Shown here: piece by piece, positions 24,463-36,584 of the stretch | How the letters are laid out: each line of letters starts with the position of its first letter | Numbering within the stretch: position 1 is the first letter of the stretch | DNA from: an uncultured bacterium | GTDB taxonomy: Bacteria > Patescibacteriota > Minisyncoccia > Phycocordibacterales > Phycocordibacteraceae | Assembly: GCA_947085985.1 (NCBI GenBank) | Contig: CAMTYL010000004.1 | Location: 61,547-125,546, forward strand | DNA length: 64,000 nt | Direction of reading: 5' to 3' | The notes under the pieces: generated by a model | What the model was told of the DNA's origin: nothing | Database searches by the model: none | The model's input: only the letters and a program-made list of their open reading frames with translations | Translations under genes and position numbers: made by a program

Positions 24463-24915
24463 ATGACGATGGTTCCCGTTGTTGAATTGCGCGTCTGGAC
24501 GCGCTATCCGGGCCAGTTCAGAGGCCAGGTGCCTGTTAGAGACCGTGCCAGCTATATGCTGACGGACCCCACCGGTCACCTTTCTGCTCTTATCAAAAGG
24601 AGCGAAGAGCTGACCAAGCAATGCGCTAAAAACAGCTTGCGGACGGACTTTCTCCCCTCCTTGAGGGCGAAGTGGCTGGCCTGGGCATCAAAGCGACTCA
24701 TCAAGAGGCTTGCTTCGCGCACCAAAAGGGCGCTCAGCCAGCTAGTGGTCACAAGCAATAAGTCTGCCAGGGTACTGGAGAGCCATGAAAAGCACCGTGT
24801 TGTGCAAAGCATGGACAGGGCCGTGAGATTGGACTTTGTTGCTTACCAGGCTAAGGAGCCTTTTGACGGAGAAACCCTTCTCTTGGTGGCATACGCAAGT
24901 ACCGTCCTAAAATAA
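24463..24915 (+). CDS. hypothetical protein, opposite strand, inside the rplB-rpsS junction
   Basis: 150 aa, SD GGAGGT 8 nt upstream of the ATG, terminator downstream. Confidence 0.55.
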   Translation: MTMVPVVELRVWTRYPGQFRGQVPVRDRASYMLTDPTGHLSALIKRSEELTKQCAKNSLRTDFLPSLRAKWLAWASKRLIKRLASRTKRALSQLVVTSNKSARVLESHEKHRVVQSMDRAVRLDFVAYQAKEPFDGETLLLVAYASTVLK

Positions 24916-24924
24916 GCCCACCCC

Positions 24925-24960
24925 GGACCCTGCACCATGCAGGGTCCGCGCTTATTAAGG
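24925..24960 (+). terminator. rho-independent terminator
   Basis: GGACCCTGCA-ccat-TGCAGGGTCC then GCGCTTATT. Confidence 0.6.
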
Positions 24961-24982
24961 ATGGGGGAGTATACTTTCTTAT

Positions 24983-25795
24983 ATGACCGACCGCATAAAG
25001 TACTTCCTTCCCGCAGCAATCTTACTCGTAATTCTCTTGGGCGGTGTCGTTTGGTACATGATGAGCACTCCCGCTCCTACACCAAATTTTGGTACTGACA
25101 CACCAGCTGCCGCCACAGAACCCGTCACCGTCACGGATGAAGCCACCTACTACACCGTAAGGGCGCTGTACCCGAGTGAAACACCCCTTAAAGCTTCTGC
25201 AGGGGCACAGGCCGACCAGACAGCTGTTTCAGTCATGAAGACCTTCGTAGAGCAAGAAATTGCCCGGTTCAAAGACAACGGGAACTTTGCGAACCTATCG
25301 CACGACGATGTGCAGATGTTGGGGCTCGATCAGCGCAAGTATGAGCTGGATCTTGAGTACACTACACATGCTGGTAACGCGACACTCACCTATGTGTACC
25401 AAATGTACATGGATACGGGTGGAGCCCATCCAAATGTGTTTTACCGAACCTTTACTTTTGATGTAAAGACGGGAGCCCAGCTCAGCATGCACGACCTCTT
25501 TGCGGAAGATGCGCCTTACCTTGAGACTCTCTCTACCCTCTCGCGCAGCAAACTGCCTGCGTTTATGGCTGCGCGTAGCGGCGTAGCGGTAAGCGAAGTA
25601 GATACCGACTACATCGCGAGCGGCACCATGGCTGTGGAGGACGCGTTCCAAAACTTCTACTTCAAGGACGGAAACTTGGTACTCCTCTTCCCTCCCTACC
25701 AAATCGGCCCGTATGTTCTGGGCATGATTGAACTTCCTATTCCAGTGTCAGAACTTTCAGATCTACGCGTTGAGTACAAAAATAGTGCCCGTTAA
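24983..25795 (+). CDS. membrane-anchored DUF3298/DUF4163-domain protein (RsiV/PdaC-like fold)
   Basis: N-terminal TM helix; hallmark YQMYMDTGGAHPNVFYRTFTFD block. Confidence 0.65.
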   Translation: MTDRIKYFLPAAILLVILLGGVVWYMMSTPAPTPNFGTDTPAAATEPVTVTDEATYYTVRALYPSETPLKASAGAQADQTAVSVMKTFVEQEIARFKDNGNFANLSHDDVQMLGLDQRKYELDLEYTTHAGNATLTYVYQMYMDTGGAHPNVFYRTFTFDVKTGAQLSMHDLFAEDAPYLETLSTLSRSKLPAFMAARSGVAVSEVDTDYIASGTMAVEDAFQNFYFKDGNLVLLFPPYQIGPYVLGMIELPIPVSELSDLRVEYKNSAR

Positions 25796-28299: not shown

Positions 28300-28914
28300 T
28301 TATGCAGAAATGATCTCCACGAGTGCACCCGGAGCGCCTGGAATAGCGCCAGAGATAATCATCTCTCCGGTAGCAGCGTTTACCTTCAAGACCTTTAGGT
28401 TCTTGATGGTTACACGGTCGTTACCCATGCGTCCTGCCATGCGCATACCCTTAGCGACGCGTCCTCCGGCGCGACCTCCTCCTCCGATGGAACCAGCCTC
28501 GCGCTCAGAGTGCTTCTGACCGTGTGAGCGGCGTCCTCCATGGAAGCCGTGGCGCTTAACCACACCAGCAAATCCGTGACCCTTAGAGGTAGAAGAGATA
28601 ACAACGGTGTCACCCTCAGCAAATACGTCAGCCTTGATTTCGCTTCCAACGGTTAGGTCGCCTGCCTCAGTCTTGAATTCCTTTAGGAAACGGTATGCCT
28701 TGCCCTTGGTGTGACCAAGCTGTGGCTTTGCTACACGGCTTTCCTTCTGCTCTCCAAAAGCAACCTGCACAGCAGCGTATCCATCCTTACCAGCAGCCTC
28801 CTTCACCTGTGTGACCACAACAGGACCTGCCTGTACGACAGTTCCAGCGTATACACGACCAGACTCATCAAAAATCTGAGTCATGCGGCCTTTACGAGCG
28901 AGGATGAATTTCAT
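28300..28914 (-). CDS. rplC: 50S ribosomal protein L3
   Basis: MKFILARKGRMTQIFDESG; start taken at ATG 28914. Confidence 0.9.
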   Translation of the reverse strand: MKFILARKGRMTQIFDESGRVYAGTVVQAGPVVVTQVKEAAGKDGYAAVQVAFGEQKESRVAKPQLGHTKGKAYRFLKEFKTEAGDLTVGSEIKADVFAEGDTVVISSTSKGHGFAGVVKRHGFHGGRRSHGQKHSEREAGSIGGGGRAGGRVAKGMRMAGRMGNDRVTIKNLKVLKVNAATGEMIISGAIPGAPGALVEIISA

Positions 28915-29106
28915 GAGGTAAAAATAAATCGCGCTAACACGTAGCGCGAGGTCGCTCAAAAGCGACTTCGGCTAGTGGTCTACCGCCCAAATGACGGTGT
29001 ACATAGCAACTCAAGGACTATACAGGGTCTGTCTCTGGAATGCAACTTTCCATGCTATATTCGCAGGTGTCAGGGTTGCCTGACGGAAAGGAACGGTAAG
29101 CCCATG

Positions 29107-29199
29107 TGGGAAATCACTTTCGGAGATGGGGGTTCCGACGGCCTGAAGCAGGGCGACGGTGGAACCACCATCATCGGAGACGGCGGCACCAAGATCTAG
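29107..29199 (+). CDS. candidate 30-aa small peptide MWEITFGDGGSDGLKQGDGGTTIIGDGGTKI
   Basis: three GDGG repeats; possible extended -10 TGcTATATT about 35 nt upstream; terminator just downstream; alternative 74-aa reading from GTG 28975 adds a CxxxCxxxxCxxC motif. Confidence 0.3.
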   Translation, partial: WEITFGDGGSDGLKQGDGGTTIIGDGGTKI

Positions 29200-29218
29200 C
29201 CGTCCCCGCCCAGAATGG

Positions 29219-29250
29219 GACCCGGCGCGGATGCGCCGGGTCTTTCTCAT
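29219..29250 (+). terminator. rho-independent terminator
   Basis: GACCCGGCGC-ggat-GCGCCGGGTC then TTTCTCAT. Confidence 0.55.
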
Positions 29251-29259
29251 ATACAGTTT

Positions 29260-29286
29260 GGGCCGCGAGCGTGTTGCTCGCGGCCC
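29260..29286. terminator. 11-bp perfect hairpin GGGCCGCGAGC-gtgtt-GCTCGCGGCCC just after the 77-aa gene
   Basis: seen directly; no clear T-tract on either strand. Confidence 0.4.
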
Positions 29287-29288
29287 TG

Positions 29289-29522
29289 TTAATGAGGTAT
29301 GCAGTGCGGGGACACGTACCGGTGGGTTTTCTTGCTCTTCCAGCGAAGAGAATTGTCACACCAGTACACTTCTCGAGCCCTCATCGGAGTAGGCTCATAA
29401 TCCCGATGATGTTCTGGGTTCGGGTGCAGAGCCTTCCCTATCCGATGGTTTCGATCATACTCTCGCTGTCGCTCCGCCGTCGGCTTTCCGCCGCCAGGCA
29501 CATTGCGGTTATTACCGTACAT
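29289..29522 (-). CDS. hypothetical 77-aa basic, His-rich protein
   Basis: SD GAAGGAGAG 5 nt upstream of the ATG; convergent with the small peptide gene. Confidence 0.45.
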   Translation of the reverse strand: MYGNNRNVPGGGKPTAERQREYDRNHRIGKALHPNPEHHRDYEPTPMRAREVYWCDNSLRWKSKKTHRYVSPHCIPH

Positions 29523-29585
29523 CTACTCTCCTTCTCTACCGATGAACAGAGGGGAGCATACCGCGCTTTGTGCGAAAGGAAAAGC

Positions 29586-29613
29586 AAAAACCGCCCCTTG
29601 CGGGGCGGTTTTT
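29586..29613. terminator. bidirectional terminator immediately after rpsJ
   Basis: AAAAA-CCGCCCC-ttgc-GGGGCGG-TTTTT. Confidence 0.65.
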
Positions 29614-29635
29614 GCTTTTGTTATCCGAGCGAATC

Positions 29636-29998
29636 TTACACCATCTTCACGTCGATAGTAACACCAGACGGAAGGTTGAGGTTGGTAAGGGCTTCAATAA
29701 CCTTCGCGTTTGGCGAGAGGATATCGATAAGACGCTTGTGGATACGCATCTCGAACTGCTCGCGCGCGTCCTTGTGAACGAACGTTGAGCGGTTCACGGT
29801 CCAACGCTTGATTTCCGTTGGAAGCGGTACGGGTCCTACAATCTTCGCATCAAAGCGATTTGCGGTGTCCATAATCTGCTTCACCGAAACATCAAGAATC
29901 TTGTGCTCGTAGGCACGCACCCGGATGCGTAGCTTCGGCTCTGCAGGAGCCTCCGCTGTAGCGGCCTTCTTGACGGTCTTTTTCGCGGTTGTTGCCAT
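29636..29998 (-). CDS. rpsJ: 30S ribosomal protein S10
   Basis: KLRIRVRAYEHKILD core; start taken at ATG 29998 (ORF reaches TTG 30028). Confidence 0.9.
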   Translation of the reverse strand: MATTAKKTVKKAATAEAPAEPKLRIRVRAYEHKILDVSVKQIMDTANRFDAKIVGPVPLPTEIKRWTVNRSTFVHKDAREQFEMRIHKRLIDILSPNAKVIEALTNLNLPSGVTIDVKMV

Positions 29999-30020
29999 AC
30001 GAGTAAGAATTAGATTGGAT

Positions 30021-31223
30021 TTAGGCAACGATCTTCGTTACCACACCTGCTCCAACCGTCTTGCCACCCTCACGGATAGCGAAGTGCTGAGACTCCTCAA
30101 GCGCGATAGGCGCAGTGAGCTTTACCTTGAAGGTAACGGTGTCTCCCGGCATAACCATCTCCTTTCCTTCTGGAAGGGTCACCTCACCTGTTACGTCCGT
30201 TGTGCGAACGTAGAACTGAGGCTTGTAACCAGAGAAGAATGGAGTGTGACGTCCTCCCTCGTCCTTACCAAGGATGTATACCTCGGCTTCAAAGTCAGTA
30301 CGAGGAGCAACGGATCCCGGCTTCGCGATAACCTGACCGCGATGCACGTCCTCCTTCTTAGTACCGCGGAGCAAGATTCCTGCGTTGTCTCCAGCCATAC
30401 CTTCGGTGAGCTGCTTGTTGAACATCTCAATACCGGTAATGGTGGTCTTTGCAGTTGGGTGGAGGCCGATGATTTCAACTTCCTCTCCCACCTTGATAAC
30501 ACCGCGCTCGATACGACCAGTGATAACTGTTCCGCGTCCTTCAATTGAGAACACGTCCTCAACAGGCATTAGGAATGGCTTGTCGGTCTCGCGAACTGGG
30601 TCTGGGAAGTATGAGTCCATCGTGTCGACGAGCTCCTTCACCTTAAGTGCCCACTCATCGTTAGCATCAGTTGCCTCAAGTCCCTTAAGACCTGATCCCT
30701 TGATGATAGGAGTAGTAGCACCATCGTAGCCGTTCTTGGTGAGAAGCTCACGCATCTCCTCTTCAACGAGCTCTACCATGTCAGCGTCCTCTACCATGTC
30801 TACCTTGTTGAGGAAGATGATAAGACGAGGCACACCAACGTTCTTTGCAAGAAGAATGTGCTCGCGGGTCTGAGGCATAGCACCGTCAGTTGCGGCAACT
30901 ACGAGTACTGCACCATCCATCTGGGCAGCTCCCGTAATCATGTTCTTGATGTAGTCGGCGTGGCCTGGCGCGTCAATGTGCGCGTAGTGGCGATTTGGTG
31001 ACTCGTACTCTGAGTGGTGAAGGGCGATGGTGATTCCACGAGCCTTTTCCTCAGGTGCGTTGTCGATGTTTTCAATCTTCTCAGCGCGGGCCTTGTAGCC
31101 TGCAGCTGCGTTCAGGTTGAGAACGTTAAGAATACCGGCAGTGAGCGTAGTCTTACCATGGTCCACGTGACCGATGGTTCCTACGTTCATGTGCGGCTTG
31201 CTGCGGTCGAATGCGTCTGCCAT
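30021..31223 (-). CDS. tuf: elongation factor Tu
   Basis: [24 protein letters not shown]. Confidence 0.97.
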
Positions 31224-31497
31224 ACGTTTGTAAATTACTGGTAGCTAAATTTGTGTAATTTCGCTGCCGCGCCTGCCTGCCAGCCGGGGATGGCAGCAGG
31301 CGACCAAGGCGCAGACACGAACTTTCCGCGCAACGCCTTTCAGCCACCCCCTGCCTCCCTGTGGAGACCTGGAATACTAAAAAGAGCGCCGTTCTCGCGT
31401 TACTAGTAAAAGTACCCGAGCGAATACTAAAGGTCAAGGCCCTTTTAGAGCCTTGCAACTACGAAGGGGCGGCCAGATGGCCGCCCCTACTCTACTT

Positions 31498-31740
31498 CTA
31501 GCGCGCCAAGGCGAACCGTCGGTGCGATGTGTACCGCTTTGGAGCAACCTCAGCCCGATACGGCTTATTGCCGAGCTCCGGTCCCAGGTACGCAGGAACG
31601 GGAGTCGGCTTTTCCGGTCTGCTACGCCGGGCGCCGTGCCGTAGCGGGTAGCGACCCGGGAACGCCAAGCGCACAAGCGCAAACGGCACAAAAAAGAACA
31701 TGTACAACCGGAATATCCGGTCACTGATAGCTGCAATCAT
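31498..31740 (-). CDS. hypothetical 80-aa membrane-anchored basic protein (could instead be a non-coding GC-rich leader)
   Basis: SD GGGAGGAAG upstream; palindrome GGGGCGGCCAGATGGCCGCCCC downstream. Confidence 0.35.
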   Translation of the reverse strand: MIAAISDRIFRLYMFFFVPFALVRLAFPGRYPLRHGARRSRPEKPTPVPAYLGPELGNKPYRAEVAPKRYTSHRRFALAR

Positions 31741-31769
31741 AGCTTCCTCCCTGCCCAGGCGAGCATACT

Positions 31770-31809
31770 ACCACAAAAATTCATCCCCCGGCCACGCTGT
31801 GGCCGGGGG
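31770..31809 (-). terminator. rho-independent terminator after the 95-aa gene
   Basis: CCCCCGGCCAC-gct-GTGGCCGGGGG followed, on the minus strand, by TGAATTTTTGTGG. Confidence 0.6.
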
Positions 31810-31821
31810 ATACTTGGTGGT

Positions 31822-32109
31822 CTAACGGCAGCCCCACCCGCCGCAGGGGCGTCTGACGCCCCGATTGGGCACCTCGCGAGCTGGAATGGAGCGCCCAAGA
31901 GCGCGAGGCGGCTGCGGAAAGGTCTCCCAGATGGTCTTCTCGCGAATGAGTTCTGCCCGGATGAGCTGCTCCAGCGCGAAGAGTGCCGAATCTGCGCGCG
32001 GAAAGACCATCAGTACGGACCCTTCAGTCGCCACAATCGTGCGACTGAAAATCGGCGATTGGTCGGTATCATCCACGACGATAATGCCAGACGAATTAAC
32101 TGGGCTCAT
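31822..32109 (-). CDS. hypothetical 95-aa protein between fusA and tuf
   Basis: SD GAGGGAGGTG upstream of the ATG; C-terminal CGGWGC. Confidence 0.5.
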   Translation of the reverse strand: MSPVNSSGIIVVDDTDQSPIFSRTIVATEGSVLMVFPRADSALFALEQLIRAELIREKTIWETFPQPPRALGRSIPAREVPNRGVRRPCGGWGCR

Positions 32110-32200
32110 GCCCACCTCCCTCTTAGTTACATTTCCCAGAGAGACCATATCACAAAAGCCGCCAAATGGCGGCTTTTGTGCTACTTCGCTGCAAAACAGT

Positions 32201-34348
<2,148 letters not shown>

Positions 34349-36480: not shown

Positions 36481-36584
36481 GTGTAGATAAAAACCCCCGC
36501 TTGGGAGCTCCATGGACTATATACGGACCAGTAAATAAATGCAACCTACTTTCGCAGCAGAAACAGCGCACGACGGCCAGATAC

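Follow-up and report, generated by a model that had tools for sequence, protein, structure and literature searches.

In Escherichia coli, the S10 leader combines transcription attenuation controlled by the ribosomal protein L4 and assisted by NusA with translational control (PMC3616713). Ribosomal-protein-dependent transcription attenuation is also known from Bacillus subtilis, in the L20 leader of the infC operon (PMC3616713). A further candidate, the L4-Archaeoglobi leader, lies upstream of rplC-rplD-rplW-rplB (Eckert & Weinberg 2020; PMC7247131). Here we analysed the gap between rpsJ and rplC in a 64,000-nucleotide (nt) stretch of DNA, hereafter the window, from an uncultured bacterium of the Patescibacteriota (GenBank assembly GCA_947085985.1, contig CAMTYL010000004.1, positions 61,547 to 125,546). 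The gap contains a structured leader RNA directly upstream of rplC, an orphan gene for a protein of 77 amino acids (aa), which we call p77, and a short plus-strand unit whose open reading frame (ORF) encodes GDGG repeats.

Gene regulation in the candidate phyla radiation (CPR), or Patescibacteria, is almost undescribed, and these bacteria are not culturable alone. The proteins nearest to the L3 of the window among species-representative genomes, at 56-82% identity, all come from Parcubacteria/Paceibacterota, within this radiation. With a probability of about 70%, we read the gap as the junction of two transcription units, tuf-rpsJ and rplC-rplD-rplW-rplB and onwards, which holds three separate things and not one system: attenuation in the leader, the p77 gene and the GDGG unit. 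The leader is the best-supported element of the gap, coexisting with coding genes rather than replacing them. A cis-regulatory leader of the rplC operon had been the last and least favoured option in the initial annotation; the element, at 29045..28920 and partly beyond the interval considered there, is now supported by covariation.

The gap measures 721 nt and lies within ribosomal genes of the minus strand; Logan contigs carry exact copies of it. It had been described as a spacer that is normally absent, which is right for most bacteria and wrong for this clade. Across 80 related genomes, which also served for the promoter survey below, rpsJ and rplC are separated by anything between 3 and 3910 nt (621-1472 nt among the nearest relatives), and the content of the gap varies from genome to genome. 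The genome L081 (GCA_023264415; L3 93% identical) has a homologous gap of 751 nt. All of the ORFs and hairpins listed in the initial annotation are present in the sequence, including the two flanking terminators. One of them, with 18-nt arms at 29580-29619, follows directly 3' of the rpsJ stop and closes the tuf-rpsJ unit; the other is a minus-strand terminator-like hairpin with a T-run at 28949..28929.

The structured leader is about 95 nt long (29012..28920, minus strand) and begins downstream of the rplC promoter. RNAalifold, run on an unfitted MAFFT alignment of 16 genomes, recovers helices P1, P1b and P2 and the terminator, with compensatory changes in P1b and P2. In a 14-genome alignment, 96% of the cells are paired and 7 pairs carry double changes, a result equalled by none of 500 shuffles, with slid controls at 24-44%. 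The covariance model built from this alignment matches at E<1e-4 in 23 sources, each time just upstream of rplC and oriented toward it. Within the 64-kb window it has one significant match, of 69 bits, at 29012..28920. Over all 35 matches, in an alignment fitted by the model itself, 95% of the cells are paired and 12 pairs have double changes.

The 5' domain of the leader (28971..29012) contains a conserved 1x3 internal loop (GCUA-N-GU ... AC-CAA-UGGC) and is the likely protein-binding site. The P3 hairpin is variable, with a different sequence in the nearest relatives, and is missing in a second leader subgroup. In terms of described RNA families, an Rfam 15 scan of 28700-29900 at E<=10 gave nothing on 28920-29012 of the minus strand. 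The matches that it did return (rnk leader, STnc240 and others) were rejected as terminator look-alikes, all of them on the 29580-29619 hairpin. At the gathering threshold, Rfam finds only a tRNA in the whole window. A full-text literature search returned no paper with both “ribosomal protein leader” and “Patescibacteria”. We regard the rplC leader as a previously undescribed family of ribosomal-protein leaders, present in CPR bacteria.

The promoter in front of the leader was identified by aligning the 300 nt upstream of rplC, where TTGCA(T/C)-N17-TA(T/G)AGT is invariant in nine genomes. The same pattern is found in approximately 25 of the 80 relatives, 85-180 nt before the ATG. The exact form TTGCAT-N17-TATAGT has two copies in the window, with 0 expected by chance, and the other copy is directly upstream of rpsL. 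This suggests that the sequence is the organism's strong ribosomal-protein promoter consensus. The second copy occupies 36516-36544 of the minus strand, immediately 5' of rpsL (S12); because of it, the listed start of the rpsL ORF (36513) must be too far upstream. We also observed a TATAGCA/GTAGCA motif (29041-29061 in the window) about 8 nt 5' of the rplC -35 element, partly kept in genomes L003 and L015, which have no GDGG ORF. This motif may act as an upstream element of the promoter or as the site of a regulator, and not only as the antisense -10.

At the other end of the leader, the stem of the terminator hairpin (CGCGC...GCGCG) is kept among relatives through compensatory changes, and in the nearest relatives the U-run stands 0-8 nt before the rplC ATG. 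Another promoter would not fit into this interval, so expression of rplC from its promoter needs read-through of the terminator. This bears on whether the conserved RNA could instead be a free-standing small RNA gene, composed of a promoter, some 95 nt and a terminator. The RNA has a strong promoter of its own and a canonical terminator with a U-run, as such a gene would. However, besides the dependence of rplC on read-through, the element always lies immediately upstream of rplC and points toward it in at least 23 Paceibacterota genomes, its terminator loop is complementary to the leader, and the short variants without terminator continue straight to the ATG. We consider a free-standing RNA very improbable.

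The complementarity just mentioned defines a possible anti-terminator. The 3' strand of P1, CCAAUGGC (CACUAGC in the window), can form a duplex with GCGCUAUUGG, which makes up the terminator's 5' arm plus its loop, and the predicted duplex has -7 to -13 kcal/mol in 14 of 14 genomes. The CACUAGC of the window is matched by a GCUA-C-GUG loop in a compensatory manner (-8.3 for the cognate pair vs a mean of about -4 for non-cognate ones), and genome L040 has an A-U to U-A swap in the same pairing. The sequence of the terminator loop would be conserved because the loop pairs with the P1 3' strand.

The simplest model is autogenous attenuation, probably by a ribosomal protein of the operon itself. 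In the proposed mechanism, the P1 3' strand would act as an anti-terminator by taking up this alternative pairing with the terminator. An operon-encoded ribosomal protein in excess would bind and lock the P1/P2 domain and so block the anti-terminator; the terminator would then form and transcription would stop before rplC. The terminator hairpin may additionally hinder translation. Precedent makes L4 the most likely ligand, with L3 as the next candidate. NusA is encoded within the window.

Some relatives differ in this region. A short leader variant, about 60-105 nt upstream of rplC in L017, L019, L049, L051, L056 and L076, retains only CGUCC-loop-GGACCAAUAG and passes directly into ACAAC-AUG with no terminator; it may represent a different expression platform, perhaps a translational one. 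In genome L086 (L3 90% identical), some 60 nt are added between the leader terminator and the rplC ATG.

The second element of the gap is the p77 gene. The 77-aa ORF had been noted at the outset for its strong Shine-Dalgarno (SD) sequence (GAAGGAGAG at 29534..29526, upstream of the ORF), and a check of dN/dS has now confirmed purifying selection. Two homologues of equal length share 74-75% identity with p77, one of them in the rpsJ-rplC gap of L081. Compared with each of these two relatives, p77 has a dN/dS of 0.07-0.17 in its own frame and of more than 1 in both other frames, and the differences at codon positions 1, 2 and 3 number 15, 12 and 40. On this pattern of changes, p77 is a real gene under strong purifying selection. 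The protein is restricted to its lineage.

Only five further relatives of p77 came up when 1.84 billion representatives were searched with a profile. The distant relative P0004 (74 aa) comes from a groundwater genome of Hainich, where it lies in an rpsJ-rplC gap of 3.2 kb together with an rve-type insertion sequence (IS) and four other ORFs. P0008 (112 aa) stands directly after rpsJ, and P0006 adjoins a ParE gene. In L002 and L004, longer ORFs in the same slot (115 and 110 aa) share an N-terminal G-x-KPTAER-x-EY motif and C-terminal pieces. Scans of metagenomes and of viral contigs for further p77 loci gave already-known contigs only or nothing, and the viral contigs yielded no relative. The ORFs of 166 and 181 aa upstream of the p77 relatives in L083 and L086 were considered as a shared neighbour and discarded, being mutually unrelated.

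As for its composition, p77 is rich in Arg, Lys and His (pI 9.9) and hydrophilic, with a grand average of hydropathy (GRAVY) of -1.6 and no membrane segment; its second Cys is not conserved. It matches no ribosomal model in Pfam or NCBIfam and no solved ribosomal protein. Most plausibly, p77 is a small nucleic-acid- or ribosome-associated protein. The nucleotide conservation of its 5' untranslated region (UTR) is higher than that of the ORF. There, RNAalifold on three sequences predicts a hairpin with 12 pairs, all kept and with zero compensatory changes, and this conserved hairpin is predicted to mask the SD. Past the stop codon, the stem of a second hairpin shows paired changes in L081 (GGACCGCGAGC/GCTCGCGGTCC) and in L083. 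This hairpin is probably the p77 terminator or a 3' stabiliser.

The variation between relatives raises the question of whether the gap is an insertion hotspot with decaying mobile cargo, and p77 a selfish or accessory passenger unlinked to translation. The range of gap lengths, the different content between relatives, an IS of the rve family in the gap of L086 and the similar interruption of the fusA-tuf, rpsG-fusA and rplB-rpsS junctions all fit such a view. We find it an apt account of what varies within the gap. It fails on p77, which is under strong purifying selection, and whose type of gene holds the slot right after rpsJ in the window, L081, L089, L002 and L004 where the remainder of the gap differs; there are also no matches to viral contigs or PHROGs. 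As an account of the whole gap it is unlikely.

The third element is the plus-strand GDGG unit. The initial annotation presented it and p77 as a convergent pair; the two ORFs are indeed convergent, with p77 co-directional with the ribosomal operon. The ORF with three GDGG repeats and the hairpin downstream of it (29219-29242, then TTTCTC) are present as described. The extended -10 had been placed at 29068-29076, and its actual site is 29053-29061. A single occurrence of this 9-mer in 64 kb is not unusual, as 25 of 100 shuffles contain it.

L081 and L002 show the same succession of promoter, hairpin, SD, ORF and terminator, with ORFs of 40 and 43 codons, respectively, and hairpins of other sequence. 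The terminator hairpins of these two genomes are also in the same place with another sequence, and in L081 the T-run after the hairpin is visible. In all three lineages the ATG is 183-190 nt upstream of the rplC ATG. No ORF of this type is present in the other relatives checked. The three peptides are acidic and have DG(L/I)(K/R) and GDGGS in common, with differing lengths and repeat numbers (three GDGG repeats in the window, one each in L081 and L002). The conservation of the ORF thus came out divided, with a unit architecture kept in three lineages, a fast-diverging peptide and weak coding evidence (p ~0.02).

A toxin-antitoxin-like pair had been suggested for p77 and the GDGG unit, with a basic toxin neutralised by an acidic peptide or by convergent antisense RNA. 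The opposite charges (pI 9.9 vs 4.1), the convergent arrangement, the predicted hairpin that masks the p77 SD, a trait of some type I toxin mRNAs, and the ParE gene beside one distant relative are in line with this idea. It is not supported, given that the partners are separable, with p77 relatives and no GDGG ORF in L004 and L086, and that PADLOC, Pfam and NCBIfam are all without match. Furthermore, each unit has a terminator of its own (29219-29242 and 29286..29260), so the RNAs need not overlap. The pair is not the co-directional bicistron of type II systems, and p77, hydrophilic and with no membrane segment, is not the hydrophobic toxin of type I. We regard such a pair as highly improbable.

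Another suggestion was that the GDGG peptide is a secreted calcium or metal binder, or the precursor of a ribosomally synthesised and post-translationally modified peptide (RiPP), with a 74-aa form that adds a Cys4 metal site. Three Gly/Asp-rich repeats with a period of 9-10 residues do resemble RTX proteins, and the 74-aa reading does contain C-x3-C-x4-C-x2-C. Against this, no Pfam model matches at E<=10, including HemolysinCabind (PF00353; nonapeptide GGxGxDxUx), the number of repeats is not conserved, and a signal peptide or hydrophobic segment is absent. The neighbourhood gives no help either: the 64-kb window's 28 largest ORFs, of which 27 have at least 230 aa and one has 208 aa, belong to housekeeping, transport or uncharacterised genes, and none of them encodes a RiPP modification enzyme (radical SAM, YcaO, Lan or similar). 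The part that would carry the Cys4 site lies antisense to the conserved promoter and leader of rplC. Both the calcium-binding and the RiPP proposals are therefore extremely improbable.

Three further reading frames in the gap were rejected. The 74-aa form from the GTG exists as an ORF (28975-29199) and is not retained as a protein, since it is antisense to the conserved rplC promoter and leader, and neither its frame nor its Cys residues are conserved. The equivalent in L081, ECNFLCYIPESQG, is in another frame that does not join the GDGG ORF and is without the third and fourth Cys. A minus-strand ORF of 79 aa (29250..29011, equal to 1113-1352 of L084), predicted by a gene caller on Logan contigs, traverses the rplC promoter and is unconserved in L081. 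The variable third codon positions of the GDGG frame fall on first positions of this ORF, which is probably a mistaken prediction. Lastly, a plus-strand ORF of 223 aa (29106-29777) is antisense to p77 and rpsJ and has no matches. The protein profile libraries searched returned nothing for the alternative ORFs in the gap or for the p77 relatives.

Several observations weigh against the reading of the gap as a junction with these three elements. For the leader, covariation of the anti-terminator is weak: its columns are 87% paired with 1 double-change pair, and 31 of 500 shuffles reach the observed pairing. In the second leader subgroup (L010, L020, L055 and others) an anti-terminator is not obvious, and the short variant (L017, L019, L049 and others) has no terminator; because these two differ, the expression platform is not uniform. 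The ligand is a candidate chosen by precedent, and a crude motif search found no mimic of the internal loop in the 16S, 23S and 5S rRNA of E. coli. As for p77, searches of Pfam, NCBIfam, PHROGs, PADLOC and PDB gave no match. Its AlphaFold2 model, from a 5-sequence alignment, is of low confidence, with a predicted local distance difference test (pLDDT) score of 61, a helix at 16-25 and a beta-hairpin at 52-63. The p77 family is also tiny, and in some contigs its members have an IS element or ParE gene as neighbour, which suits mobile cargo and a link to translation equally.

For the GDGG unit, the contrary evidence concerns translation, and much of it would suit a small RNA that is not translated, or a side effect of divergent transcription at the rplC promoter region, with an incidental frame. 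An open frame of 31-43 codons is not unlikely by chance in DNA of 60% GC. In 2 of 3 pairwise comparisons the other frames align about equally, scoring as well or better, and the 40-aa peptide of L081, searched against 5.8 billion proteins, matched only itself. The peptide is loosely conserved, with lengths of 31, 40 and 43 aa through indels, and the promoter, 5' hairpin and terminator are better conserved than the ORF. In favour of translation, the ATG and the purine-rich SD are equidistant from the 5' hairpin in the three lineages, the indels between the window and L081 are in frame, and D, G and L codons are kept by synonymous changes. Differences are most frequent at third positions, then first, then second, as expected of coding sequence (29/18/38 at positions 1/2/3; pooled p=0.019, from comparisons that are not independent). 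A non-coding unit is a possibility that we hold tentatively, at somewhat below even chances. The odds that the GDGG ORF is translated are about even, and whether the unit, firing divergently from the rplC promoter region, is a micro-protein or a small RNA is uncertain. The coordinates of all these elements are collected in Table 1.

Table 1. Position, strand and character of the features in and around the rpsJ-rplC gap, in window coordinates.
Feature	Position	Strand	Description
Leader 5' domain (P1/P1b/P2)	28971..29012	-	From RNAalifold, pair counts and covariance model
P1	GCUA 29007..29004 with UAGC 28974..28971	-	GCUA with UGGC in relatives
P1b	29002-29001 with 28979-28978	-	GU/AC, covarying with GA/UC
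P2 hairpin	28998..28982	-	Many compensatory changes
P3 variable hairpin	28951..28966	-	GUCGCU-UUUG-AGCGAC
Attenuator	28920..28949	-	Hairpin 28949..28929 and U-run 28928..28920, 5 nt before the rplC ATG (terminator scan)
Anti-terminator pairing (predicted)	28977..28971 with 28945..28938	-	Alternative to P1 or terminator
rplC operon promoter	29045..29017	-	TTGCAT-N17-TATAGT
p77 gene	29289..29522	-	77-aa ORF under purifying selection
p77 5' UTR	29524..29558	-	Predicted hairpin, GCUCCC-CUCU with SD AGAGAAGGAGAG (core 29534..29526)
Hairpin past p77 stop	29260..29286	-	Perfect 11-nt arms, no clear U-run
GDGG ORF	29104-29199	+	31 codons, MWEITFGDGGSDGLKQGDGGTTIIGDGGTKI, three GDGG, pI 4.1
Extended -10	29053-29061	+	TGCTATATT; front end of GDGG unit
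5' hairpin	29069-29084	+	GTCAGG-GTTG-CCTGAC; front end of GDGG unit
Purine-rich SD	29085-29093	+	GGAAAGGAA; front end of GDGG unit
GDGG unit terminator	29219..29250	+	Hairpin 29219-29242, perfect 10-nt arms, then TTTCTCAT
Bidirectional intrinsic terminator	29580..29619	both	Perfect 18-nt arms AAAAGCAAAAACCGCCCC/GGGGCGGTTTTTGCTTTT; kept in L081
rplC	ATG 28914	-	Followed by rplD, rplW, rplB
rpsJ	29998..29636	-	Translation gene cluster
tuf	31223..30021	-	Translation gene cluster
fusA	34348..32201	-	Translation gene cluster

The same ribosomal gene cluster is interrupted at other junctions, namely fusA-tuf, rpsG-fusA and rplB-rpsS. The fusA-tuf gap is the second long one (31224-32200, minus strand, 977 nt), with a GC content of up to 0.64-0.67. 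It contains ORFs of 108 aa (32148..31822) and 80 aa (31740..31498), both with strong SDs, a GC-rich hairpin 3' of each and no Pfam match; about 270 nt between these small ORFs and tuf are non-coding. Between rplB and rpsS (24463-25795, plus strand) there are two opposite-strand genes, one of them DUF3298, in an arrangement also present in L081. An NlpC/P60 gene (34459-35358, minus strand) separates rpsG and fusA. In L086, the integrase of the rve family inside the rpsJ-rplC gap is at positions 1383-2231 of that sequence.

In terms of ribosome binding sites, no recognisable SD was found before rplC (28915-28928) or rpsJ (29999-30020), and rplC is preceded by a U-rich tract and ACCUC. Strong SDs of the GGAGG type are present on the small orphan ORFs, p77 and those of the fusA-tuf gap.

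The rplC leader offers a concrete, testable case of probable ribosomal-protein feedback control in CPR bacteria, common to at least 23 species-level genomes, and the tuf-rpsJ / rplC junction marks a separate regulatory boundary in this radiation. With p77, we have a clear instance of an orphan small protein that is under selection and tied to the neighbourhood of translation genes. The 74-aa Cys-cluster ORF and the 79-aa minus-strand ORF called on Logan contigs are a warning for annotation, as both are spurious. A bolder proposal, which we consider a long shot, is that the p77 family is a lineage-specific factor associated with the ribosome or NusE(S10), which one Paceibacterota clade would have recruited into the position behind rpsJ; its partner or antidote would be the acidic GDGG micro-protein. 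Separately, in this proposal, the rplC leader would be a new class of protein-sensing attenuator. If the latter were true, its ligand would reveal how CPR bacteria balance the synthesis of ribosomal proteins.

Compared with the orphan small ORFs of CPR genomes, p77 and the GDGG peptide are likewise short, lineage-restricted and without known domains, p77 being clearly under purifying selection. They match no described family, and the fixed placement right after rpsJ is specific to p77.

The leader shares with L4-Archaeoglobi its position directly upstream of rplC-rplD-rplW-rplB, a basis in comparative genomics only and the choice of L4 by precedent. However, the archaeal motif is unrelated, with no Rfam match here, whereas the present RNA is bacterial and has an intrinsic terminator. 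The B. subtilis L20 leader is set apart by its description, since it concerns another operon, another protein and another RNA fold; the likeness, as proposed here, is that the choice between anti-terminator and terminator depends on whether a protein binds a leader helix.

Finally, the E. coli S10 leader and the present one are both 5' leaders of the L3-L4-L23-L2... block, and in both, an intrinsic terminator hairpin comes after the other hairpins, immediately ahead of the first coding gene. For E. coli, autogenous control by an operon-encoded ribosomal protein with the help of NusA is established, while here we infer it. The two differ in position, as the present leader is upstream of rplC and not of rpsJ, which follows tuf and has its own terminator. 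They share no homology of sequence or structure (Rfam 15, E<=10). The E. coli leader has five hairpins, in contrast to a single irregular hairpin domain here. Lastly, L4 acts on a paused complex in E. coli, whereas an explicit anti-terminator is proposed for the rplC leader.

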